64,000 bases of DNA from positions 11,033 to 75,032 of the forward strand of contig JAHEXW010000003.1 in the NCBI GenBank assembly GCA_023251915.1, read 5' to 3'. Source of the DNA: Actinomycetes bacterium (GTDB lineage: Bacteria > Actinomycetota > JAHEXW01). Shown in pieces: positions 9,249 to 44,192 of the stretch. The translations under genes and the position numbers were made by a program. Under the pieces are notes generated by a model. The model did no database searches, had not been told where the DNA came from, and saw only the letters and a program-made list of their open reading frames with translations. Positions within the stretch are counted from its first letter, which is position 1, and each line of letters opens with the position of its first letter.

Positions 9249-9476
9249 ATGGCTGAACAATGTCCCGGCTCCAAGTTGATACGCGAACCGCAGCCTGAAG
9301 ACATCACCTGCCCGTGGTGTAAGGTGAGCGTCGAGATTTGGACCGATGAAACCAGGGCGAGATGCCGCAACTGCGGCCACGTTATCGTGCGTGAAATGAC
9401 GCAATCTTGTCTGGATTGGTGCGTGAAGGCCAAGGAATGCCTGGGGGTGTCCGAGAGTGAAGAAACGGGCCACTAA
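9249..9476 (+). CDS. Small 8-Cys metal-binding (zinc-ribbon/Fe) protein
   Basis: 75 aa: CPG, CPWC, VEIWTDE, CRNC, SCLDWC, EC; purine-rich RBS (agaggcgag). Confidence 0.75.
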   Translation: MAEQCPGSKLIREPQPEDITCPWCKVSVEIWTDETRARCRNCGHVIVREMTQSCLDWCVKAKECLGVSESEETGH

Positions 9477-9711
9477 GGTTGTCCTTGGCCTTCTTGTCCT
9501 GGTCCTGGCGATAGGAACCCTTGCGATGGTTGTTCTGTCGCGGTCAGGTCCTGGACCTTCGATTGCTCTAGACCCTACCGGAAAGAGGATCCATATCACC
9601 GGAGGCATTCTGCCGCCCGGTTGCCGTTGTCACAGCATTGATAAGAAGGTCGTTGACGAGCACAAGAAGTACGGGATCACTGATTGCGCGAAGTGCCACC
9701 CGAAGAAGTAA
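9457..9711 (+). CDS. Membrane-anchored mini c-type cytochrome
   Basis: 84 aa, GTG start, basic N-terminus plus TM helix, CRCH and CAKCH motifs, extra His. Confidence 0.65.
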   Translation: MKKRATKVVLGLLVLVLAIGTLAMVVLSRSGPGPSIALDPTGKRIHITGGILPPGCRCHSIDKKVVDEHKKYGITDCAKCHPKK

Positions 9712-10021
9712 CCCGCAGAGCGACGCCCGAGGAAATGCCGGCCAACGCCGGCACGATCGCGAAGAACGAGACTAAAATGTTCGGCCGGCTGCTCTCTACA
9801 ATCGCGATGCCTAACCAAGGCGCTGCAATATAAGCGACTGGTATCCCCAGCCCCAGAATCAAACCCCACCGCCACGAATCTTTTGGCCACATAGCGCCCA
9901 GCACTAGCCCGGCAATCAGCAAAAAAGCCACTGTCGGCAACAATTGATCTTGTTTGATTTGAATAAACCCAGCCGCAGCCGCTCCGGCGACACTGGTTAT
10001 CCAAGGGGTTAGTTTATGCAT
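9677..10021 (-). CDS. Small membrane protein (114 aa, ~4 TM), probably leaderless
   Basis: MHKLTPWITSVAG...WRWGLILGLGIP...; TATAAT 6 nt upstream of ATG 10021. Confidence 0.65.
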   Translation of the reverse strand: MHKLTPWITSVAGAAAAGFIQIKQDQLLPTVAFLLIAGLVLGAMWPKDSWRWGLILGLGIPVAYIAAPWLGIAIVESSRPNILVSFFAIVPALAGISSGVALRVTSSGGTSRNQ

Positions 10022-10152
10022 GGAAGCATTATACCTTAGCGCCGGCGTTGTCTTGTTTCGTCTCAATTCCCGCGTTCTAGAAATCCCGGGACCCAGGATG
10101 ACATCTTCACGTTTGGCCTTGTTGCTATCGTTTCTCGGACGATCCCGCTTAT

Positions 10153-10209
10153 GTAGCTGCCAACCTTTAGGTCGGCAGCCGACTGCCGGTCTAAAAGACC
10201 GGCAGCTAC
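10153..10209. repeat. REPIN-like doublet of GTAG-family REP sequences
   Basis: GTAG-CTGCCAACC-TTTA-GGTCGGCAG, then in inverted orientation GTAG-CTGCCGGTCT-TTT-AGACCGGCAG. Confidence 0.7.
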
Positions 10210-10259
10210 ATTTTTGCACCCAAAAGCCAACGAAAAAGACTCTGCGAAGTCGTGATCTT

Positions 10260-10541
10260 GCGAGTGAGTGGTGCCCCCGGATTTTCTAGGTCGCGGCTCG
10301 TGCGTTCGCGGGTGAGTTTGCCGCGCCTGCCTGCCGGCAGGCAGGTCGCCCCTTTTTGACGAGCGAGTGTCTGCGCGGGTGATGCGACTGGGGGGACCCC
10401 CGATGCGCGTGCAGGCCACCAATCGGCGAGCACGCAGTGGGGGAAGTCTGTCGCGGCAGGACCCGCGCGTGATGCGAGTGAGTGGTGCCCCCGGATTTTC
10501 GAGGTTCGCGGCTCATGCGTTCGCGGGTGAGTTTGCCGCGC
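10260..10541. repeat. Two 67-68 bp direct repeats, each containing the tRNA-Arg 3' end
   Basis: 10260-10326 and 10474-10541 differ at 3 positions; both contain TGGTGCCCCCG (= 10648-10658); perfect 20-bp palindrome CCTGCCTGCCGGCAGGCAGG at 10326-10345. Confidence 0.85.
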
Positions 10542-10609
10542 TCATTCCATTCGCTCGCAATGACGAGCTTTTCGCGCCTGCCGGCGCGAACAGGTTCGAA
10601 CAGTAAAAG

Positions 10610-10652
10610 CACCATCTCGAAATCCTACTCTCAGCAGGACTTCGAGATGGTG
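10610..10652 (-). terminator. Intrinsic terminator overlapping the tRNA-Arg 3' end
   Basis: CACCATCTCGAA...TTCGAGATGGTG inverted repeat, followed by CTTTT on the minus strand. Confidence 0.7.
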
Positions 10653-10724
10653 CCCCCGACAGGATTCGAACCTGTGGCCTACCGCTTAGGAGGCGGTCGC
10701 TCTATCCAACTGAGCTACGAGGGC
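10648..10724 (-). tRNA. tRNA-Arg(CCT)
   Basis: GCCCTCGTAGCTCAGTTGGATAGAGCGACCGCCT-CCT-AAGCGGTAGGCCACAGGTTCGAATCCTGTCGGGGGCACCA; full cloverleaf, encoded CCA. Confidence 0.97.
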
Positions 10725-10774
10725 AAGAAACGTGCATTGCGATCTGCCGGGAAGGGGCGCGGCAATCTGACTTA

Positions 10775-11719
10775 CTATCTTTTCAGCGCGGCCACGATTA
10801 TTTTGCCGATGAGATCGGTAAAATCGACGCCGGCGTGGGCGGCGGCCATCGGGAAAAGGGACGTCTCCGTCAATCCCGGGATGGTATTTAGTTCAAGCAC
10901 ATATGGCGTATCAGTTTTAGCTTCGACGATGAAATCGACGCGCGAGAAATCACGGCAACCGAGCGCTTTGTGCGCCTGCAAAGCCAGGCTCTGCACCTTC
11001 TTGGCCAACTCGTCTGGCAGGCGGGCCGGTATGAAGTACTCGGTCGCGCCCATCGTGTACATCGCTTGGAAATCGAAATGGCCTTTCTTCGGTGTGATCT
11101 CGACGGGCGGCAGGGCCCGCGCTCGTTCCGCGCCCAAGACGCTGACCGCGACTTCCTTGCCGCGGACGAACTTTTCCAGTATGACTTTGTCCCCATAGGA
11201 GAACGCGCCCAAAAGGGCGGCGGTGATATCTTCTTCTTTTTGCACGAAATTGACGCCTTGCGCCGAACCCTGGCTGGACGGTTTGATCACGAGCGGCAGG
11301 CCCAGGCGGGCGATAATGTCTTTAACCACGTTGGCCGCGCCCAGTTCCTTGACGGCGCCCGTCGACAGAGCGATGAAATCCGGAGTCGGGATGCCTTCCC
11401 GCAAGAAAATGTCTTTAGACAGAGACTTATCCATTCCCAGGACGCTGGCCAGGACACCGCTGCCTGTATAGGGAAGGCCCATAGCTTCCAGGAGACCCTG
11501 GATGGCGCCGTCCTCGCCGAAACGGCCGTGCAGGGCGATGAAGCACAAGTCGGGCTGTTCTTGACGGAGATGGTTGACGATGTGTTCATCGACATCCAGG
11601 CTGACCACCCGGTAGCCCAATGCCTTGGCGGCTGTGGCGACCCGTTTTCCGCTCTGGAAGGAGATGTCTCGCTCCAGTGAATGTCCGCCCATCAGCACGG
11701 CGATCTTCGGTTTCATCAA
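10775..11719 (-). CDS. ddl: D-alanine--D-alanine ligase
   Basis: IAVLMGGHSLERDISFQSG, ALHGRFGEDG, YTGSGVLAS, MDK, VIKP, CRDFSRVDF, ELNTIPGLT. Confidence 0.95.
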   Translation of the reverse strand: MMKPKIAVLMGGHSLERDISFQSGKRVATAAKALGYRVVSLDVDEHIVNHLRQEQPDLCFIALHGRFGEDGAIQGLLEAMGLPYTGSGVLASVLGMDKSLSKDIFLREGIPTPDFIALSTGAVKELGAANVVKDIIARLGLPLVIKPSSQGSAQGVNFVQKEEDITAALLGAFSYGDKVILEKFVRGKEVAVSVLGAERARALPPVEITPKKGHFDFQAMYTMGATEYFIPARLPDELAKKVQSLALQAHKALGCRDFSRVDFIVEAKTDTPYVLELNTIPGLTETSLFPMAAAHAGVDFTDLIGKIIVAALKR

Positions 11720-11726
11720 CAGCCTC

Positions 11727-12980
11727 CTAGAGTTTCAAGCTTCGGTAGAGTTCCATCTCTTGTTCGACGACCTCGGCCAACCGCCGCACGCCCTCCCTGA
11801 TGTCGCTCTCTTTCATGAATGAATAGTTCAGCCGCATGCAGTTGCGGCCTGTGCCGTCGGCGAAAAATGCCTTGCCCGGAACGTAGGCGACCTTCTGTTC
11901 TACCGCTTTAGCCAGCATGTTGGTCGTGTCTAGATATTCCGGGAGAGTGACCCAGACAAAGAAACCGCCTTTCGGCTTGGTCCATTTTACGCCGCGTGGG
12001 AAGTATTCCTCGCAGGCGTTGAGCATCTTATCCCGGCGTTTGATGTAGATGCCGATCAGCTTCTTAAGATGCGTTTTCATGTCAGTTTCCGCGAAATAAG
12101 CAGTCACGACCCGTTGCGTGAGGCTGGAACTGCACAGATCGGCGGCTTGCTTGGCGAAAATCAGTTTCTCGCGGATCGGACGCGGCGCCACAACCCAACC
12201 AACCCGCAGACCGGGCGACAGGATCTTGGAAAAAGTACCGAGATAGACGACGTTGTCGGGATCCAGCGTCTTAATTGACGCCAGCGGTTCTTCCTCGAAC
12301 GACAAACGCCGGTAGGCGTTATCCTCAACTATCAGTGTGTTGTATGCGCGGGCCAGTTTGACAAGTTTTTTGCGCCGGGCCAATGACATGGTCCCGCCGC
12401 TCGGGTTCTGGAAGCTCGGAATGACATAGATGAACCGGGGAGTAATCCCGCGCTTCTTTAGTTGCTCCAACTCTTCCGCGACCTTGTCGATCTTTAGGCC
12501 GTTGTCATCGCACTCGATCTGGATTATGTTGGCTTGATAGCTAAGAAACGCGTTTAAGGCCCCGACGTAGCTTGGCGCCTCGGCGATAATTGTGTCGCCG
12601 GGGTTGACGAATATCTTCCCAACCAACTCAAGACCCTGCTGGGACCCGTCGGTGATGACGATATCGTCGGGTGTGCATGCCACATCCTCGTCGGCCATAA
12701 ACTTGGTCAGCCATACACGCAGCGGTTCGTAGCCTTCCGATGAGCCATAGTTTAGCGGCGCCGGGCCGTCTTTCATGATTTCGCCTAGGATGCGAGACAT
12801 TTTGTCCAGATTCAGCGCTTTGGTATAGGGAGCGCCGCCCGCCAGCGCGATGATGTCGGGCCGCTCTGTGACAGCCAGCAGGTCGCGGACCTCGCTCGAG
12901 CGCATCGACTCGGTTCGGTCCGAGTATAGGTGTTGCCACTTATCAAAAAACAGTTCCTGGGATGATTGCTGGTCTTTCAC
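11727..12980 (-). CDS. PLP-dependent aminotransferase class I/II (probable GTG start at 12980)
   Basis: ITDGSQQGL, EAPSYVGA, YVIPSFQNPSG, EDNAY, GTFSKILSPGLRVGW; no HTH domain. Confidence 0.9.
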   Translation of the reverse strand: MKDQQSSQELFFDKWQHLYSDRTESMRSSEVRDLLAVTERPDIIALAGGAPYTKALNLDKMSRILGEIMKDGPAPLNYGSSEGYEPLRVWLTKFMADEDVACTPDDIVITDGSQQGLELVGKIFVNPGDTIIAEAPSYVGALNAFLSYQANIIQIECDDNGLKIDKVAEELEQLKKRGITPRFIYVIPSFQNPSGGTMSLARRKKLVKLARAYNTLIVEDNAYRRLSFEEEPLASIKTLDPDNVVYLGTFSKILSPGLRVGWVVAPRPIREKLIFAKQAADLCSSSLTQRVVTAYFAETDMKTHLKKLIGIYIKRRDKMLNACEEYFPRGVKWTKPKGGFFVWVTLPEYLDTTNMLAKAVEQKVAYVPGKAFFADGTGRNCMRLNYSFMKESDIREGVRRLAEVVEQEMELYRSLKL

Positions 12981-13125
12981 CTGTTCACCTGTAGTTTGCG
13001 GGGCATTTATGTAAAGCATCATTATACTATACTTTTCCATATTGCTTATCTTTAAACGCAGGATTAGAATGAAACATACAGGTCAATGAGGGCAAGTTCG
13101 TTAGCAATTCAAGGAGGCAAGCGTT

Positions 13126-13452
13126 ATGTCTGATAGTGGTGGAGATTTTTACAGTTTTCTGGGCGGGCTGCTTTTCGGAGCGGTCGCCGGCGCTGTGGCG
13201 GGTATGTTGTTGGCCCCGAAATCCGGGGTTGAGACGCGGCGTGAATTGAAAGAGAAAGCGGAAGAGGTCTACGATCGCGGCCGCGAAATGTACGCGGAGC
13301 AGCGCGACAGGCTCGATGAAGCTATTGAGTCCGGCAAAGAAGCCCTTACGTCCAAGACTGAAGAGCTGAAATCAAAGCTAGAGGAAGGCGCAGCCATTCT
13401 GCGGAAAGCCGAGACCAAACCGGCAACCGGCGGGGGCAAAGCCTCCAAATAA
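13126..13452 (+). CDS. YtxH-domain protein
   Basis: FLGGLLFGAVAGAVAGMLLAPKSGVETRREL plus coiled coil; GGAGG RBS. Confidence 0.9.
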   Translation: MSDSGGDFYSFLGGLLFGAVAGAVAGMLLAPKSGVETRRELKEKAEEVYDRGREMYAEQRDRLDEAIESGKEALTSKTEELKSKLEEGAAILRKAETKPATGGGKASK

Positions 13453-13458
13453 AGGCTT

Positions 13459-14022
13459 ATGGCCAAAAAGATCGCTGCGCTGTCTCCAGCCAATCTTGCC
13501 GACATCCCCGAACCCTGCGGCAATTGCCGCCAATGGGACCTGGAGACGCGCGGCATCGTCAACCGTCTATTGCGTGAATGGGGACCCTGCGGATTCTTGG
13601 CTTACGAGGACAAACGTCCGGTCGGTTTCACCATCTTCGGTCCGCCGGCATTCTTTCCCAAGAGCGGGCTCTTCGCAGCGGGCCCGATCAGCTCGGACGC
13701 GATATTCATCGCTTGCGTTTTTGTCGAGCCGAACTTCAGGATGAGCGGACTAGGCAAACGCCTGGTGCAGGCGCTCGCCAAAGAGGGTCACCGCCGTGAA
13801 TTTATCGCTTTGGAGGCATTCGCCGGCCGAGACGCCGACCGGCCTCCCGCTGTGCCGGTGGATTTCTTCCTAAAAGAAGGCTTTTTTGTTCTGCGTGACG
13901 ATCGGCGGCACCCGCTGGTAAGACTTGAGATAAAGAGCCTCGCGACCTGGTCGGCCAAGGCCGAGCAGGCGTTAGAGATACTAACCGCCCGGCAGTCGGC
14001 ACCGGCCAAGGCGCCGCTGTAA
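13459..14022 (+). CDS. GNAT-like acetyltransferase (actinobacterial type)
   Basis: PEPCGNCRQW, WGPCG, FIACVFVEPNFRMSGLGKRLV acetyl-CoA motif. Confidence 0.75.
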   Translation: MAKKIAALSPANLADIPEPCGNCRQWDLETRGIVNRLLREWGPCGFLAYEDKRPVGFTIFGPPAFFPKSGLFAAGPISSDAIFIACVFVEPNFRMSGLGKRLVQALAKEGHRREFIALEAFAGRDADRPPAVPVDFFLKEGFFVLRDDRRHPLVRLEIKSLATWSAKAEQALEILTARQSAPAKAPL

Positions 14023-14052
14023 TTCATCGCCAACGTGTGAGAAAGGACCATA

Positions 14053-14907
14053 TTGAACAAGCAAAACCACCGGGGTCTGGCAGCCGCACGTGTCGGTCTT
14101 TTTGCCATAGCCTATGTCGCCGCTCTCTTCGCGATCAGCGTCTTTTCCCGTTTTCTTCCCCAGATAATTTCTACCTCAGGTTTGTTGCTGCTAACGGTTA
14201 TTGTGCCACCGCTGCTGGCCATCGGTTGGCGTGTTTTCTGGGACCGCAAACCAATTGTCACTTTGGGGCTCCAGCCCGTTCGGACGTGGGTGGCCGAGGC
14301 CGTCGCCGGTTTTGCCGTGGCCGCTGTCTTAGTTGTCGGAATCTTTGCGACTTTGGGAGCGGGCGGCTGGTTGACCTGGCGCGTACATCTGGCCGGTCGT
14401 ATGACCAGCCCGATTTTGATTGCTTTGATAATCTATCTGTTCTTGGCCGCTTTATTGGTCGCGGTCAGCGAGGAGTTCGTCTTCCGCGGTTACGTCCTGC
14501 GCACCGTTTTGAACGATTGGGGCGCGCCCGTCGGTATCGCCGTATCGGCGGTGTTGTTCGGCTTGGCACACGCGTTCAATCCGGGTTTCAATTGGCTGGT
14601 CGGTGTTAATCTAGGCTTGGCTGGCGCGTTGATGGGTTACGCCGCTGTCGTCTATAAGAACCTCTGGTGGCCGATCGGGTTCCACTTGGCCTGGAATTTC
14701 TTCGAGGGCCCTGTTCTTGGGATGCCGGTCAGCGGTCTAAGTCCGTTGAGTGTCAGCCTTTTCTCCACCAAAATTGACGGACCGGCCTGGCTGGTCGGAG
14801 GCGCCTTCGGTCCAGAGGGCGGCGTCGCTGCCACGGTTGCCCTTCTCTTGGGCGTCGGTTGGTTGTGGTTCTTGGACAGACGCCGAAGGGCGGCTGGCCA
14901 TGCCTGA
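14053..14907 (+). CDS. CPBP (Abi/CAAX) intramembrane metalloprotease
   Basis: SEEFVFRGY, LFGLAH, PIGFHLAWN, GAFGPEGG. Confidence 0.92.
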   Translation: MNKQNHRGLAAARVGLFAIAYVAALFAISVFSRFLPQIISTSGLLLLTVIVPPLLAIGWRVFWDRKPIVTLGLQPVRTWVAEAVAGFAVAAVLVVGIFATLGAGGWLTWRVHLAGRMTSPILIALIIYLFLAALLVAVSEEFVFRGYVLRTVLNDWGAPVGIAVSAVLFGLAHAFNPGFNWLVGVNLGLAGALMGYAAVVYKNLWWPIGFHLAWNFFEGPVLGMPVSGLSPLSVSLFSTKIDGPAWLVGGAFGPEGGVAATVALLLGVGWLWFLDRRRRAAGHA

Positions 14908-15733
14908 GTTGCCCGAAGTCGAGACCGTTGCCCGCGATCTGGCGGAGAAGATAGTCGGTCGTTCGATCGCCGGTTTCTGGACGGATAATCCCGCAATGCT
15001 GCGCGGCAAGCCGGCGGCCGAATTTGCCTACGCCATCAATGGCGCTCGCTTGGCCGCCGTTAACCGGCGCGGCAAACAACTACTGCTTAATCTGTCGAAC
15101 GGTTTAACTCTTGTCATTCATCTCAAGATGACTGGGCAGTTGCTGGTGATGCCGACAGGTTCGCCAGTGCAACAATGGACGCACGCGATCGTAGAGCTGG
15201 ACGGCGGAATCGACTTGAGGTTTCGCGACATCCGCAAGTTTGGCTACTTTGACCTTGTTGAAACCGAGCGGATTGGGACGACGGGCGAAAAGATGCCGGG
15301 CTTGGGGCCTGAGCCTCTGGATCGCGGCTTCACCAAGGGTGTATTTGACTGGTCCATCAAGCGGCACCCGCACGCCAAGATAAAAGCCCTTTTGATGAAT
15401 CAGTCGTTCCTGGCTGGAATCGGTAATATCTATGCGGACGAGGCGCTATATTACGCGGGAGTCCGTCCGACGCGCCCAGCCGGCCGTTTGACGGCCGCGG
15501 AGCGCGACCGGCTCTACACAGGCATACGCCGCATTCTTACCGACGCGATTGAGAAGAGAGGCACGACTTTTTCCACCTTCGTTGACGCGTCTGGTCAGCC
15601 CGGCGGTTATGTTTCCTCACTCAAGGTCTACGGACGCACTGGGGAACCGTGTGTCAAGCGCGGGTGCGGAACGGTTAAGAAAGTGAAAGTCGCCGGCCGC
15701 TCAAGCCACTATTGCCCGAAATGCCAGAAGTAA
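14900..15733 (+). CDS. mutM: Formamidopyrimidine-DNA glycosylase
   Basis: MPELPEVET, RRGKQL, HLKMTG, DIRKFG, GIGNIYADE, C-terminal zinc finger ending CPKCQ. Confidence 0.96.
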   Translation: MPELPEVETVARDLAEKIVGRSIAGFWTDNPAMLRGKPAAEFAYAINGARLAAVNRRGKQLLLNLSNGLTLVIHLKMTGQLLVMPTGSPVQQWTHAIVELDGGIDLRFRDIRKFGYFDLVETERIGTTGEKMPGLGPEPLDRGFTKGVFDWSIKRHPHAKIKALLMNQSFLAGIGNIYADEALYYAGVRPTRPAGRLTAAERDRLYTGIRRILTDAIEKRGTTFSTFVDASGQPGGYVSSLKVYGRTGEPCVKRGCGTVKKVKVAGRSSHYCPKCQK

Positions 15734-15737
15734 TATA

Positions 15738-15832
15738 AAGTACGAAGTGCACAGAGAACACAAGGAGCACGAGGATGACATGGGGGCAAGGGCAGGTCTT
15801 ACGGCCATGTCGTCCTTGTACTCTTTGTAATC
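15738..15832. repeat. Hairpin element made of 9-nt periodic units
   Basis: (GARYACRAR)n-GAYGACATG arms in inverted orientation; related copies at 46999-47046, 47488-47535, 50987-51022. Confidence 0.7.
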
Positions 15833-15875
15833 TGATAGTTTGACAACAACGTAGTGGACACAAAAAGGGGGCTTT

Positions 15876-16394
15876 ATGAATCTGAAGGCAGGGTTGAGTA
15901 TTGTCGCCGCGCTTGCACTGAGCGGCGTAATGGTCGCGGGCTGTTGTTTGCCAAGCGGCCTGAGCAGCAGAATCGGCGACGAGGTCGGGAAGTCGGTAGA
16001 GTCGAACGTTAAGAAAAGCATCGAGGACAGCACAAACACAAAGATCGATACAACCAAGACCAAGGAAGTAACCGGCGAAGATCTAAAGTCGGTCCCGCGC
16101 TATCCTGACTCGACTCGTACGCTATATATCAAAGGGGAGCCGATCAGCGGTAACGTCAGCATCAGCCTCACTTACGAAACGAAGGACGCAGCGGCCAAGG
16201 TCGCCAGCTGGTACAAGGACAAAATGGCCGGTTTGGGTTGGACCGTTGTTTTGACAGTCGCAGGCCAGGACGGTGGCGAGATGATCTCTTATAAGAAAGA
16301 GGGAACCGAGACGACCGCCACGGTTAATATAACCAGAAGCAGCGATGTGACGGATATCGGGATAATGTATAACGGTGCGGAATCAGGCGCGTAG
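15876..16394 (+). CDS. Lipoprotein of unknown function
   Basis: Signal peptide with lipobox VAGC; PRYPDS...YETKD...WYKDKM..GW. Confidence 0.8.
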   Translation: MNLKAGLSIVAALALSGVMVAGCCLPSGLSSRIGDEVGKSVESNVKKSIEDSTNTKIDTTKTKEVTGEDLKSVPRYPDSTRTLYIKGEPISGNVSISLTYETKDAAAKVASWYKDKMAGLGWTVVLTVAGQDGGEMISYKKEGTETTATVNITRSSDVTDIGIMYNGAESGA

Positions 16395-16403
16395 ACGTAA
16401 AAG

Positions 16404-16931
16404 CTAGGGTCTGATTATCTGTTTGTCGGTAACTAGAATGTGGAGGCGCAGGTCGTGCGGTTCATCTGGGATGTTCTGCACGACCTGTTCTTCGTAAGCT
16501 AAACCCGCCAACTTCACGTCGGGCCGCAGTTTAGTGATGAAGCGGTCGTACCATCCGCCGCCATATCCTAACCGCAAACCGTTGGCGTCGAACGCCAAAC
16601 CCGGGATCAGAACCAGATCCGCCTCGACGGCCTCGACCCGTTTCACGATCGACCCCGTTACCTCCAGTAGGCCGAAATGATCCGGAATCAGCACCAGCTT
16701 GCCGTCGTTGGCCGCGGCGCTCATGATTCCGGCGGCGTCGACCTCGCTGCCAAACGCGACATAGGCCATCACGGCATGGGCGGTTCGAAACTCAGGCAAC
16801 GAGATTACCGCCGCAGTAATCGCCGCGTTCTTGGCGGTTCTGGCGCCTTCGCCCAACGAATCGCGCGCCTCGCGCATCGCCAGACGGACCTTTGTTTTCT
16901 CTACCGCGGCCAGCTCATCTTCGAAATCCAT
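16404..16931 (-). CDS. 5-formyltetrahydrofolate cyclo-ligase
   Basis: KxxLR, YVAFGSEV, DLVLIPGLAFDANGLRLGYGGGWYDR, EPHD. Confidence 0.93.
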   Translation of the reverse strand: MDFEDELAAVEKTKVRLAMREARDSLGEGARTAKNAAITAAVISLPEFRTAHAVMAYVAFGSEVDAAGIMSAAANDGKLVLIPDHFGLLEVTGSIVKRVEAVEADLVLIPGLAFDANGLRLGYGGGWYDRFITKLRPDVKLAGLAYEEQVVQNIPDEPHDLRLHILVTDKQIIRP

Positions 16932-16968
16932 ACGCCAACTCTAACATAAAACCTGGTATCATCTTGTC

Positions 16969-17457
16969 ATGAGAATCGGCGTAATATCTGACACCCACAT
17001 ACCAAGCGTTACCGACCGGTTGCCGGAGCGCGTCTTCGCGGAGTTTCGCGGCGCGGACTTGATTTTGCACGCCGGCGATATGGTTTCCTTGTCGGTGTTG
17101 GAGGCTCTGGAGAAGCTCACAAAGGTTGAAGCGGTCTGCGGCAACATGGACCATCTGGACGTATGCAGCACGCTGCCAGCTAAACGGATCATTGAGGCCG
17201 GCAAGTTCCGAATCGGGCTGACACACGGATTTGGTGCTCCGAACGGCCTAGTCGAGTGGGTAAAGGACCAATTCATTGGGGATAAAGTTGACGCTATTGT
17301 CTTCGGGCATAGCCATCACGCCATGAATGAGGTCATTGACGGAGTCCTGTTCTTTAATCCAGGCACGGCGACCGACCGCCGCTTCTCCCACGAACTGTCG
17401 ATCGGCATGCTGGAGGTCGACGACACCAGCATCACCGGCACCATCATTCCTCTCTAG
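16969..17457 (+). CDS. YfcE/MJ0936-family metallophosphoesterase
   Basis: ISDTH, HAGD, GNMD, THG, FGHSH, FNPG. Confidence 0.92.
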   Translation: MRIGVISDTHIPSVTDRLPERVFAEFRGADLILHAGDMVSLSVLEALEKLTKVEAVCGNMDHLDVCSTLPAKRIIEAGKFRIGLTHGFGAPNGLVEWVKDQFIGDKVDAIVFGHSHHAMNEVIDGVLFFNPGTATDRRFSHELSIGMLEVDDTSITGTIIPL

Positions 17458-17498
17458 AGGCAGATTGTCCAAGTTATTCCAGCACGACGATCCGCGTT

Positions 17499-17527
17499 TT
17501 GACATCCATATAAACATGCGCTAATAT
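17499..17527 (+). promoter_or_regulatory. Sigma-70 promoter of the AbrB-ABC exporter operon
   Basis: TTGACA, 17 nt, TAATAT; followed by the direct repeat GTATAGGTT/GTATAAGTT (possible operator). Confidence 0.6.
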
Positions 17528-17569
17528 GTGTATAGGTTGTATAAGTTGGAAAAGTAAGAGGAGTGTGAA

Positions 17570-17797
17570 ATGAGAAGGCCTATTTTTTACGGCAGCACGA
17601 CTATCAGCGACAAAGGCCAGGTCGTCATACCAGTCGAGGCCAGGAACGCCTTAAAGTTAGAGAAGGGCGAGAAACTTTTGGTCATGGGAATGCACGGCGA
17701 CGCGATCATGCTTATGAAACTGTCCGGCTTTCAAAAGATGTCGGAGGAAATGGCCATGCGGCAGAAAGAGCTGGACAAAGTATTAAAGGACATCTAG
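17570..17797 (+). CDS. AbrB/MazE/SpoVT-family DNA-binding protein
   Basis: STTISDKGQVVIPVEARNALKLEKGEKL. Confidence 0.9.
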   Translation: MRRPIFYGSTTISDKGQVVIPVEARNALKLEKGEKLLVMGMHGDAIMLMKLSGFQKMSEEMAMRQKELDKVLKDI

Positions 17798-41172: not shown

Positions 41173-43569
41173 ATGACAGCCCAAGAAGACCTAGAAGAGG
41201 TCAAAATCAATGAAGAACTACCCGTTATACCCCTCAAAGAACTAGTAATCTTTCCCTATCTTGTAGTACCGTTGCTCGTCGGTCGACCCAAATCAGTCGA
41301 GGCTTTGGAAGAGGCAATGCGTACCGACCACGTGGTTTTTTTGGTCGCCCAGAAACAGCAGGTCGCCGAGGAAGAGGATCCAAACCCAGACGACATATTC
41401 GAGGTCGGTACCGCCGCGACCGTGCTGCAGGTCTTGCGCCTGCCAGACGGCACGGCGCGCGCGCTGGTGGAAGGCCTGGCCCGCGGGCGCATCGTAGAGT
41501 TTACTCAGACGGAGGCTTTTCTCAAGGCACGAGTCGAGCAGATGACCCCGCCGGTTGAGCGGCGCAAAGAGAAGACCATAGAGCTTGAGGCGCTGATGCG
41601 CAACGCGGTGAATGAGTTTGAGCACGCCGCGCAACTGGGCAAGCCGATACCGAGCGAAGTCATCGTGGCCGCTCTCAACTTAGACGAGCCCGGCCGCCTG
41701 GCCGACTTCATAGCGTTCCACCTATCCCTTAAGACCAGCGAGAGGCAAGAGATTCTGGAAGCCGGTGACCCGGCGGAACGGTTGGAAAAGGTCGTCGATT
41801 TCCTATCGCGCGAAATCGAGATTCTCGAGGTCGGCGGCAAGATTCGCAACAAGGTAGAGGAACGGTTAGGCAAAACCCAAAGAGAATATTTCCTGCGTGA
41901 GCAGATGAAAGCCATCGAGGAAGAGCTGGGCGGCGAGGGCGGTTTGTCTGAAACCGACGAGCTGTCTCAGAAAGTAGAAGAGGCCGGCCTGCCTGACGAG
42001 GCCAGAGAGAAAGCGCTCAAGGAAATCGACCGACTGAGCAAGATGAGCCCGGTTTCGGCCGAAGCGCCGGTTATTCGCACCTATCTCGATTGGTTGATCG
42101 GCTTACCCTGGAAGAAGAGCAGCAAAGAGAAACTAAACATCAAACGGGCGGAAACCATCTTAAACGAAGACCATTATGGTTTGAATATGGTCAAGGAGCG
42201 CGTGCTTGAGTTTCTCGCCGTTCACCAGCTGAGCAAGCACACCAAAGGACCGATATTGTGTTTTGTCGGTCCGCCCGGAGTCGGCAAAACATCCATCGGC
42301 AAATCCATTGCCCGCTCACTCGGCCGCAAATTTATTCGCATGTCCCTGGGCGGCGTTCGGGACGAAGCTGAGATCCGCGGTCACCGCCGGACCTATGTCG
42401 GAGCGTTGCCTGGCCGCATCATTCAAAACATCCACCAAGTAGGTACGAAGAACCCGGTCTTCATGTTGGACGAGATAGACAAGGTCGGCGCCGATTTCCG
42501 GGGTGATCCGACGGCCGCTCTGCTGGAGGCGCTTGATCCGGAACAGAACAACGCTTTTGGCGATCATTATCTGGAAGTCCCGTTTGACCTGTCGGACGTG
42601 ATGTTTATCACTACGGCCAACATGCTGGACACGATTCCGCCGGCGTTGCGCGACCGGATGGAAGTCATCTCTTTCCCCGGTTACACCGACGACGAGAAGC
42701 TCAACATCGCGGACAAGTTCCTCGTGCCAAAACAGCTAAAGGAGCATGGCATCAAGGGCGCGCGGCTGTCGATTAGCAAGGATGCCCTGACCGAGGTTGT
42801 CCGGGAGTATACGCGCGAAGCCGGAGTCCGCAACCTGGAGCGTGAGATCGCGACCGTTTGCCGTAAGGTGGCCCGCCAAATCGTCGAGGGCAAGAAACGA
42901 AACGTTCGCGTGACCAAAAAGAACCTGGGTAAGTTTCTCGGAGTGCCGCGGTTTACCTACGGTATGGCCGAGGAAAAAGACCAGGTCGGCGTGGCCACAG
43001 CTTTGGCTTGGACAGAGGTGGGCGGCGACATCCTGTCGGTTGAGGCGACCATTATGAAGGGCCGCGGTAATCTGACACTAACCGGCCAGCTGGGCGATGT
43101 AATGCAGGAAAGCGCGCAGGCCGCCTTGAGCTATACGCGGGCCAACGCGGAGAAACTGAAAATATCCCAGAAATATTTCAAGGACTACGATATGCACATC
43201 CACGTTCCGGCCGGGGCGATTCCCAAAGACGGCCCGTCGGCGGGCATCACCATTGCTACAGCGATGATCTCCGCTTTAACGGGACGGCCGATACATAAAG
43301 AGGTCGCCATGACAGGTGAGATCACCCTGCGCGGCCGCGTGCTCGGCATCGGCGGGATCAAGGAAAAAGCGTTGGCGGCGCACCGAGCCGGCATTAAGCA
43401 GATCGTGTTACCGGCTGAGAACAGGAAGGATCTGGAGGAAATCCCCAGCCACGTGCAAAAGGACGTCAAGTTCTCTTTTGTGGAGACGATGGACGAAGTC
43501 ATCGACCTGGCCTTGGACGCACCAGTTGTCGAGAAATCTATACCGGTCACAAAGACTGAAACGAAATAG
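41173..43569 (+). CDS. lon: ATP-dependent Lon protease
   Basis: LPVIPL N-domain, [44 protein letters not shown]. Confidence 0.98.
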
Positions 43570-43571
43570 AT

Positions 43572-43597
43572 GTAGTTGCCGGTCTTTAGACCGGCAA
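43572..43597 (+). repeat. Single GTAG-family REP
   Basis: GTAG-TTGCCGGTCT-TT-AGACCGGCAA; near-identical to the copy at 10183-10209. Confidence 0.7.
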
Positions 43598-43653
43598 CAG
43601 CTTGGTGCATTTAGCATCTGATATAATCAGTTACCTAGTCGAAGTGAGATTAA

Positions 43654-43711
<58 letters not shown>

Positions 43712-43729
<18 letters not shown>

Positions 43730-43960
43730 AAAACAAATGATCTTAGACCCGGCCAACCGGGCGGGTTTTTGTTTTGGAAATATTTCGAAGGGTCTCGAAC
43801 CCGAGGGGGATTCTTAAAGGGGGAGAGGCTCCCCCTTTAATCTAAAGTTTAAGGAAGGGGGAACTCAAGGGGGAAACCTTTGGTTGCCCCTGTGAGGAGG
43901 ACGGACAGCTGGGTGGCCGCCCGACCGTTCGATGACCCGTTTCCCGCTCCAAAAACAAAT
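43712..43960 (+). mobile_element. ~222-bp att-like mini-element at the tRNA-Gly 3' end (remnant or non-autonomous)
   Basis: 27-bp exact direct repeat GACCCGTTTCCCGCTCCAAAAACAAAT at 43712-38 and 43934-60; inverted T-arm copy at 43790-803; 12-bp-arm hairpin at 43814-40; no ORF. Confidence 0.6.
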
Positions 43961-44192
43961 AACCACAACCCTTGAACTCAGGACGCTAATCGGCGGGTTG
44001 TCCGCTTGTGATTGTTGTTACAAAATTGACTTAAGGGCCGAAATCCTATTGAATATACCCATACAGCGCTACCAAGTAATTCTCCCCATTTCTTGAATTT
44101 GCGTAATATTTCGCAATCTATCTGCCGATACTCTCTTTGGGTGTCCTAATAGATAGATTCGTTTTGATTGGGAGGAGACACAGGGAACAAGC

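Follow-up and report, generated by a model that had tools for sequence, protein, structure and literature searches.

What is the small unit that follows a tRNA-Gly(CCC) gene in this actinobacterial genome, and where does the repeated tRNA end at its far side come from? The window, that is the whole stretch of 64,000 nucleotides that was analysed, covers positions 11033-75032 of contig C13 in genome G000 (1.42 Mb, 39 contigs, 56% G+C). The initial annotation described the unit as a 222-bp att-bounded mini-element and offered three readings: a minimal integrative element mobilised in trans, the scar of an island, or a cis-acting anti-tRNA structure. The features of the locus are the following (all on the + strand).

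43654-43729, +: host gene tRNA-Gly(CCC) with encoded CCA (ARAGORN; 72 bits with the Rfam tRNA model)
43730-43775, +: tRNA trailer, including a terminator-like hairpin (43748-43761) and a T-run to 43775
43790-43803, +: 5' arm GGGTCTCGAACCCG, a perfect 14-nt antisense copy of the host T-arm (43703-43716)
43802-43927, +: conserved module core of three hairpins and the invariant G-rich joiners GAGGGGGAU and AAGGAAGGGGG
43814-43840, +: hairpin P2 with 12-bp arms (9 of 9 modelled pairs double-changed; 97% of cells paired)
43864-43896, +: hairpin P3 with the conserved loop AAACCUUUGGUUG (8 of 9 pairs double-changed; 98% of cells paired)
43899-43922, +: hairpin P4 with loop AGCUGGGU (9 of 9 pairs double-changed)
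43927-43951, +: 3' arm plus tail, repeating positions 53-76 of the host tRNA, GTTCGA[T]GACCCGTTTCCCGCTCCA
43934-43960, +: right copy of an exact 27-bp direct repeat (left copy 43712-43738)
43992-44016, +: second, weaker terminator-like hairpin 3' of the element

The direct repeat does start in the T-loop, as the initial annotation held, and the antisense copy of the T-arm, the 12-bp-arm hairpin and the terminator (a terminator-like hairpin plus T-run at 43748-43775) are likewise present where it had placed them. The cargo is also as small and gene-less as described: no ORF of at least 40 aa lies wholly within it, the longer ORFs crossing the tRNA or exiting the element. At its right end the repeat overshoots the CCA by 9 nt; leftward it can be extended to GTTCGA if one T (43933), which is extra relative to the host tRNA, is allowed. 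The first 12 nt of the 3' copy pair with the 5' arm, which forms the 5' strand of the closing helix P1, and leave one bulge. The remainder is a tail of about 13 nt ending in CCA (against about 17 nt in most other copies). The hairpin at 43992-44016 is the counterpart of the trailer hairpin that follows the tRNA-end copy of the element in G001. With covariance model R1 the core (G000:C13:54834-54959) scores 132 bits. A single-sequence fold of this copy is unremarkable (z = -1.1) and does not recover the covariation-supported fold.

Running BLAST with the cargo across the genome, a check proposed along with the annotation, shows that it belongs to a repeat family. At E<1e-25, BLAST together with model R1 (derived from alignment A2) detects strong copies of the core (~125 nt) at exactly eight places in G000. 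ARAGORN shows a different tRNA gene 10-150 nt upstream of each copy, reading in the same direction: Gly-CCC, Arg-ACG, Ala-CGC, Gln-CTG, Glu-CTC, Gly-TCC, His-GTG and Leu-TAG. About one fifth of the tRNA genes in this 1.4 Mb genome is occupied in this way. The chance of eight such tRNA-linked, co-oriented placements is approximately (0.002)^8. Every copy shows the same order of parts: the tRNA, usually a terminator-like trailer hairpin, the antisense arm, the core and a near-copy of the tRNA 3' end. Terminator-like hairpins follow most host tRNAs and are absent inside the tRNA cluster Pro-Gly-His-Arg-Lys-Leu, where modules lie between the tRNAs and those of Gly and Leu are not preceded by such a hairpin. 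The copies are mutually 57-86% identical and there are no near-identical ones among the family members, so a recent burst did not occur.

The arms of each copy are directed at its own host. Since the same core stands behind eight different tRNAs with arms matched to each of them, one integrase/att pair cannot be its source, and a one-off att-bounded element or an island scar is ruled out by this family structure. What stands of the mini-element is its small size, the lack of genes and the repeat that starts in the T-loop; a single att-bounded insertion it is not. A better reading takes the repeat for the 3' end of a unit of the tandem type, comparable to rtT of E. coli.

The antisense arm is an uninterrupted complement, over 12-20 nt, of the host's variable loop, the 5' strand of the T-stem and the T-loop. 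The 3' near-copy spans the host tRNA from the variable loop or the T-loop through CCA, and differs from the gene in a recurrent manner: an extra pyrimidine is found two bases before T54 (GGA-GG becoming GGATGG, or GGG-GG becoming GGGCGG), alternatively one base is added directly behind A58 (the case of the window copy), or, in two G003 copies, A58 is replaced by T. As a result of these departures from the tRNA, P1 is a helix of ~12-20 bp with one bulge, and most copies then continue in a C-rich tail of ~17 nt that is identical to the tRNA 3' end. The copy also tracks change in its host: the discriminator of tRNA-Arg(ACG) is A in G000 and G in G002, and each element copy matches its own host.

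Another observation concerns the pairing of the arm. In 21 of the 22 tRNA-linked copies the real tRNA is a better partner for it than the tRNA copy inside the element, according to a rough duplex energy taken over 32-51-nt flanks. When a read-through transcript ending after the arm is modelled, the arm is bound to the T-arm in the minimum free energy structure, so that the cloverleaf is lost (z = -3.9); the anti-tRNA structure suggested in the initial annotation is thus predicted by the model. The downstream tRNA copy provides an alternative partner for the arm. In addition, the unpaired G-runs of the core could pair generically with C-rich tRNA 3' strands. The perfect arm facing an imperfect internal partner, together with these G-runs, gives the strongest hints of an interaction with the host tRNA.

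Covariation supports the fold of the core. In 38 matches aligned to the model (an alignment that is fitted to the model and favours structure), 93.3% of the cells in the three core helices hold standard pairs, against 70% in column shuffles and 42-59% when the partners are slid by 1-3 columns. Double (compensatory) changes occur at 26 of the 27 core pairs (shuffle mean 16), and in the Arg-ACG copy the 10-bp stem of P4 is even fully different. The joiners GAGGGGGAU and AAGGAAGGGGG and the loop of P3 are almost invariant across four genera. Among the non-Watson-Crick combinations, G-U pairs (26) outnumber A-C pairs (12), and most of the remaining unpaired cells are A-G mismatches (41), apparently at recurring places in P3 and P4. 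Because of this excess and this recurrence, the alignment suggests that the folded strand is the tRNA-sense strand. A folded single-stranded DNA would satisfy the covariation equally well.

Two specific contacts within the core were considered and rejected by inspection: a T-box-like pairing of a loop UGG with NCCA (the loops show no covariation with the discriminator base) and a pseudoknot in which the P3 loop would pair with AAGG of the P2-P3 joiner (likewise without covariation). Membership of a curated RNA family (ribozyme, riboswitch, T-box and so on) was rejected as well, the Rfam matches at the locus being tRNA only. At a permissive threshold, the window locus and the type-B loci together match only tRNA and tmRNA, with other best hits at E>=0.4.

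Similar modules are observed in related genomes. Using model R1 the core is found in all five genomes examined from the class (Ca. Aquicultoria-type Actinomycetota) and in none of 36 other Actinomycetota genomes. The number of copies is 8 in G000, 2 in G001, 6 in G002, 3-4 in G003 (with an extra inserted hairpin) and 19 in G004, an Actinomycetota MAG (JBAQMN01). In G001, G002 and G003 every copy is tRNA-linked with matched arms. G004 shows this build in part: three of its copies are not flanked by tRNA sequence and have another hairpin, AAGAGCGACUNNAAGGAGCUCUU, at their start, so the tRNA linkage is not absolute. Another copy stands behind the tRNA-SeC gene of Ca. Subteraquimicrobium carltonvillense UBA2594, a member of class Ca. 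Aquicultoria. A stricter pattern retrieved five metagenome contigs. In every one of them the core is followed by a 3' end of tRNA type, and in three the host tRNA (complete or cut by the contig end) lies just upstream. In the pattern scan of the genome collection, a short, unrelated hairpin repeat of one Alphaproteobacteria MAG swamped the results; the matches confirmed by the covariance model as full modules were two G004 contigs and UBA2594 only. None of the motif matches outside the lineage lies downstream of a co-oriented tRNA, and Rfam returned nothing for the 13 of them that were submitted.

In 'orphan' module copies of G004 (L032, L034, L037, L025) a conserved 5' hairpin, AAGAGCGACTNNAAGGAGCTCTT, takes the place of the tRNA-derived arm. 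One orphan is located just upstream of an AbrB-like ORF and a second small ORF, possibly a toxin-antitoxin pair as judged by eye, and about 650 nt upstream of another there is an ORF that by eye has a PIN-like look. At L021 (G004:C6:1-1834) a module is flanked on both sides by the 5' part of tRNA-Ser (D-arm region) rather than by the 3' end.

The short hairpin repeat, AGGAAGGGGG-N5-GGGGGAAACC(U)UGGUUUCCCCC, is similar to the part of the module made up of the P2-P3 joiner and P3. About 100 copies lie between genes in the Alphaproteobacteria MAG JBEIVK01 (L041-L158), and single ones are present in MAGs of Actinomycetes, Thermoleophilia, CPR and Methanocorpusculum (L039, L040, L044, L054, L056, L060, L074, L078, L111, L129, L137). 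A looser form is seen in Clostridiales (L051/L073). None of these has a tRNA nearby except L054, where an opposite-strand tRNA-Thr lies just downstream.

Summarizing, we favour, with a probability of roughly 0.6, the reading that the 222-bp unit is one copy of a lineage-wide, RtT-like family of tRNA trailers and represents a selected structured RNA that rides on tRNA transcription. From the sequence comparisons we infer transcription, processing and selection at the RNA level as follows. The element would be a structured RNA of ~165-180 nt, encoded directly 3' of the tRNA gene and on the same strand, in which a four-way-junction core (P2, P3, P4 and the G-rich joiners) is closed by P1. Both strands of P1 are host-derived, the 5' strand being antisense to tRNA positions ~44-58 and the 3' strand a sense copy that continues through CCA. 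Transcription would start from the tRNA promoter, obligatorily so inside clusters and elsewhere by read-through of the trailer terminator. Because the element ends like a tRNA, the tRNA-processing machinery would release it and trim its ends, and the folded RNA would be kept by selection. In the DNA the locus behaves like an array of 1.1-1.4 tandem units. Copies would be lost through recombination or slippage, either of the tRNA end with its copy or at microhomologies, while the tRNA copy stays matched to the host gene. Since most copies are situated behind a terminator-like hairpin, RNA levels could be low. Logan contigs from the source-sample metatranscriptome and other RNA runs contain only tRNA parts that are common to other organisms.

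Beyond this, it is possible, though rather doubtful, that the core is the active part of a tRNA-specific RNA device. Such a device may take two forms. As a riboregulator (a), the arm, masked by its imperfect internal copy, may swap to the T-arm of the (pre-)tRNA, and this exchange may sense or control the folding, the processing or the 3'-end state of the tRNA. As a protein-poor self-propagating module (b), it may have its arms rewritten from each new host tRNA. If either form were true, RtT-type repeats would constitute a widespread, unrecognised class.

The alternative that survives best is related to the latter form: a self-propagating RNA- or ssDNA-guided module, whose antisense arm would be the guide and whose arms would be rewritten at each move from the host 3' end. 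We regard this as unlikely. It would agree with arms that are host-specific and perfectly complementary to the host tRNA, with joiners as invariant as expected of an active core, with the occupation of different tRNAs in different genomes, and with the 19 copies of G004, some of them in new contexts. However, near-identical copies are lacking, Rfam recognises no catalytic motif, and all five class genomes are devoid of both a reverse transcriptase (RVT_1, PF00078) and a TnpB-type nuclease (searched by its zinc ribbon). Elements behind the same tRNA have moreover diverged about as much as their surroundings. G000 and G001 belong to the same genus, with ~84-87% DNA identity in the flanking genes, and their Gly-CCC elements are 84% identical; given this similar divergence, the latter were probably inherited vertically. 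Such a pattern fits vertical descent combined with loss.

Slightly less likely still is a non-autonomous integrative element that would be excised and integrated at T-loops by a tyrosine recombinase acting in trans (from a phage, an ICE or Xer). By analogy with the attP of CTX-phi, its inverted and direct T-loop copies might then serve as a folded or duplex att site. Several observations on the turnover of the sites point in this direction. G000 and G001 differ at all four element sites of one tRNA cluster, in spite of being congeneric: the Gly-TCC site holds a full element in G000 and is cleanly empty in G001; the His site is full in G000 and reduced in G001 to a hairpin and part of the arm; the Arg-TCT site shows a remnant in G000 (arm plus GAGGGG) and a full element in G001; and the Leu-TAG site is full in G000 and carries an internal deletion in G001. 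An arm remnant is also present behind tRNA-His in G002. The direct repeat starts in the T-loop, and duplications, deletions and one inversion repeatedly have their breakpoints in this loop, be it the sense or the antisense version. Furthermore, integrases are encoded beside tRNA-Gly(CCC) in G003 and G004 and beside tRNA-Val(GAC) in G001 and G002.

Nevertheless, a carried att site cannot be retargeted to eight matched hosts without creating chimeric tRNAs. The search for an integrase with a matching att, which the initial annotation had in view, yielded for G000 just two tyrosine recombinases (PF00589); both are among the best scores of the class and they are probably XerC/D. The integrase loci of G003 and G004 share nothing with the window cargo beyond the tRNA-derived 14-mer, and the G003 repeat is a 45-bp one that starts in the anticodon loop. 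An island with ends matching the cargo, as expected for a scar, was looked for in these two relatives and is absent. The length of the direct repeat is also variable: 27 nt in the window and 39-98 nt elsewhere, among copies that are 57-86% identical. Three repeats run from the T-loop into or through the antisense arm (Ala in G000, Gly-CCC and Arg-TCT in G001), and two of these end inside the antisense T-loop. Such variable repeats reaching the antisense arm indicate tandem arrays of 1.1-1.4 units instead of insertions with a fixed target duplication.

Relatives differ at the tRNA-Gly(CCC) site. In comparison with window positions 43519-43988, the tRNA-Gly(CCC)-plus-element cassette at L009 (G001:C23:25445-28568) is inverted between lon and the GGDEF gene. 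The breakpoint is inside an extra partial antisense arm, and the inversion replaces approximately the last 16 codons of lon. In G003 (L177, G003:C23:17001-37000, reverse complement 9367-17572) an 8.1 kb island occupies the tRNA-Gly(CCC) site, with a 384-aa integrase adjoining the tRNA and the 45-bp direct repeat mentioned above.

Known types of mobile element were tried as an identity for the family and rejected. A TnpB/omega-RNA-like 'scaffold plus guide' is set aside by the absence of TnpB from the class, and a retroelement-derived unit (SINE- or retron-like) by the absence of reverse transcriptase from the five class genomes. A tRNA-targeting integrative element lacks its cognate integrase and would face eight host tRNAs, each with its own matched repeat. 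As for an origin as MITE or from an IS, the arms are host-derived and differ per copy, the repeat measures 27-98 nt, and TnpB (the only transposase family searched) is absent.

It might also be argued that the units are neutral debris, that is stacked recombination scars or tandem duplications of tRNA ends without a function. Remnants and internal deletions do occur in the relatives, and other tRNAs of G000 carry assorted partial copies of their own 3' ends. This possibility is very improbable, however: compensatory changes maintain three helices across copies that are only 57-86% identical, joiners and loops stay near-invariant across four genera, and the arms are still perfect to the host tRNA despite the diverged cores. 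The pattern of the core is unlike that of decaying scars.

The direct-repeat unit is not an assembly artefact duplicating a tRNA end, a chance we consider negligible even though G000 is a metagenome-assembled genome in which repeats can be mis-joined, because the same build recurs at eight tRNAs of G000, in four other genomes, in a sixth MAG (UBA2594) and in five metagenome contigs. Logan contigs, which form a separate assembly of a run from the probable source sample (groundwater), cover the right half of the window locus as well as the module copies of the tRNA cluster, nearly difference-free and at ~8-15x.

Repeats of other kinds are also found behind the tRNAs of G000. Approximately 16 of the 40 tRNA/tmRNA genes are followed by an antisense arm, which lies between +9 and +66 and for the most part between +47 and +66, and/or by a more distal copy of their 3' end, while the upstream control regions contain no match above 11 nt. 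Val-CAC, Val-TAC, Leu-CAA and Lys-TTT are followed by a core of a second type, GAGGAGCUUUUC...GAAAAGUCCGAGCA, after which come the 3' strand of the acceptor stem and CCA. Second-type cores of the form GAGGAGCTTTTC...GAAAAGTCCGAGCA occur at G000:C4:12304-12803, C37:315-700 and C22:1100-1290 and 1479-1543. Upstream of this type there is an antisense T-arm, a small hairpin and a sense T-loop. It is tandemly arrayed at Val-CAC and Leu-CAA, and one array breaks the assembly (end of C4, start of C27).

A similar plan with another core is seen in the window itself at 10260-10724 (minus strand), behind tRNA-Arg(CCT) (10648-10724). Here a terminator is followed by an antisense T-arm of 11 nt at +47; of the two units that come next, both terminate in CGGGGGCACCA and both are built on a GTCATTGCGAGCGAATG...GCGGCAAACTC repeat, which also occurs behind Val-CAC, Thr-CGT and Ile-GAT. 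The tmRNA gene (G000:C15:19229-19899) is likewise accompanied by an exact copy of its last 17 nt (TCCCGCCACCTCCACCA) at +314, with a terminator of its own; the 300 nt in between show no match to core R1.

How does the family compare with known systems? Small RNAs that ride on tRNA transcripts include the 3'ETS-leuZ sponge of E. coli, tRNA-linked C/D sRNAs and tRNA-snoRNA dicistrons. They share with the module, as proposed here, the origin of a small RNA from a tRNA precursor from which tRNA processing would free it. We know of none that carries both sense and antisense copies of its host tRNA.

Islands and prophages with a tyrosine integrase, and their gene-less derivatives, resemble the module in the direct repeat of the tRNA 3' end that starts in the T-loop. 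The module differs from them by the absence of a cognate integrase, by the antisense arm, by the variable repeat and by the many tRNAs it occupies. An attP of the CTX-phi type consists of an inverted copy of the target, a spacer of ~100 nt and a direct copy at one junction. Inverted copy, spacer and direct copy stand together at one junction in the module too, but its target is not dif, phage genes are absent and the spacer is a covarying three-hairpin core. Given the present family, annotators should avoid labelling duplicated tRNA ends of this kind as att sites or as the scars of islands.

The closest likeness is to the rtT repeat of E. coli, which to our knowledge has been unexplained for decades and is known from a single tRNA. 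The literature on such elements yielded nothing beyond mentions of rttR of E. coli. According to a passage in PMC3318445 (citing Bosl & Kersten 1991), one of the repeat units in the tyrT operon codes for rttR.

In the rtT unit of strain MG1655 (tyrT/tyrV), GGGGAAGGATGAGAACCTTCGA is antisense to positions 48-69 of tRNA-Tyr with two changed loop bases; a structured core follows, and then ATCCTTCCCCCACCACCA, which equals the tRNA 3' end. In the Rfam consensus of RtT (RF00391) the antisense piece of the tRNA pairs with the sense piece to close the RNA, as it does in the module. Both elements immediately follow a tRNA gene, share its strand and end in a copy of the host 3' end with CCA. They also have in common the succession of an antisense T-arm piece, a structured multi-branch core and a tRNA 3' copy, as well as tandem units, and several arms in G000 have the GGTGAGAAC look of the E. 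coli arm. Differences are found in the core, which here consists of three hairpins with G-rich joiners, and in P1, for which tRNA positions 44-58 are used instead of 59-68. Whereas tRNA-Tyr is the only host in E. coli, at least eight different tRNAs are occupied in G000; moreover, the host organism is actinobacterial and the module has no Tpr-like ORF. The window locus and the type-B loci gave no match to RF00391 at E<=5, whereas the four E. coli units, included as positive control in the same covariance-model run, score 133-137 bits. With the architecture but not the model match, the family is RtT-like in construction and not a member of RtT. With an rtT architecture built around an unrelated core that covaries strongly, what was a single case can now be approached by comparison: many copies on many hosts, with matched arms and a recurrent bulge, provide testable constraints on the role and the construction of such repeats.
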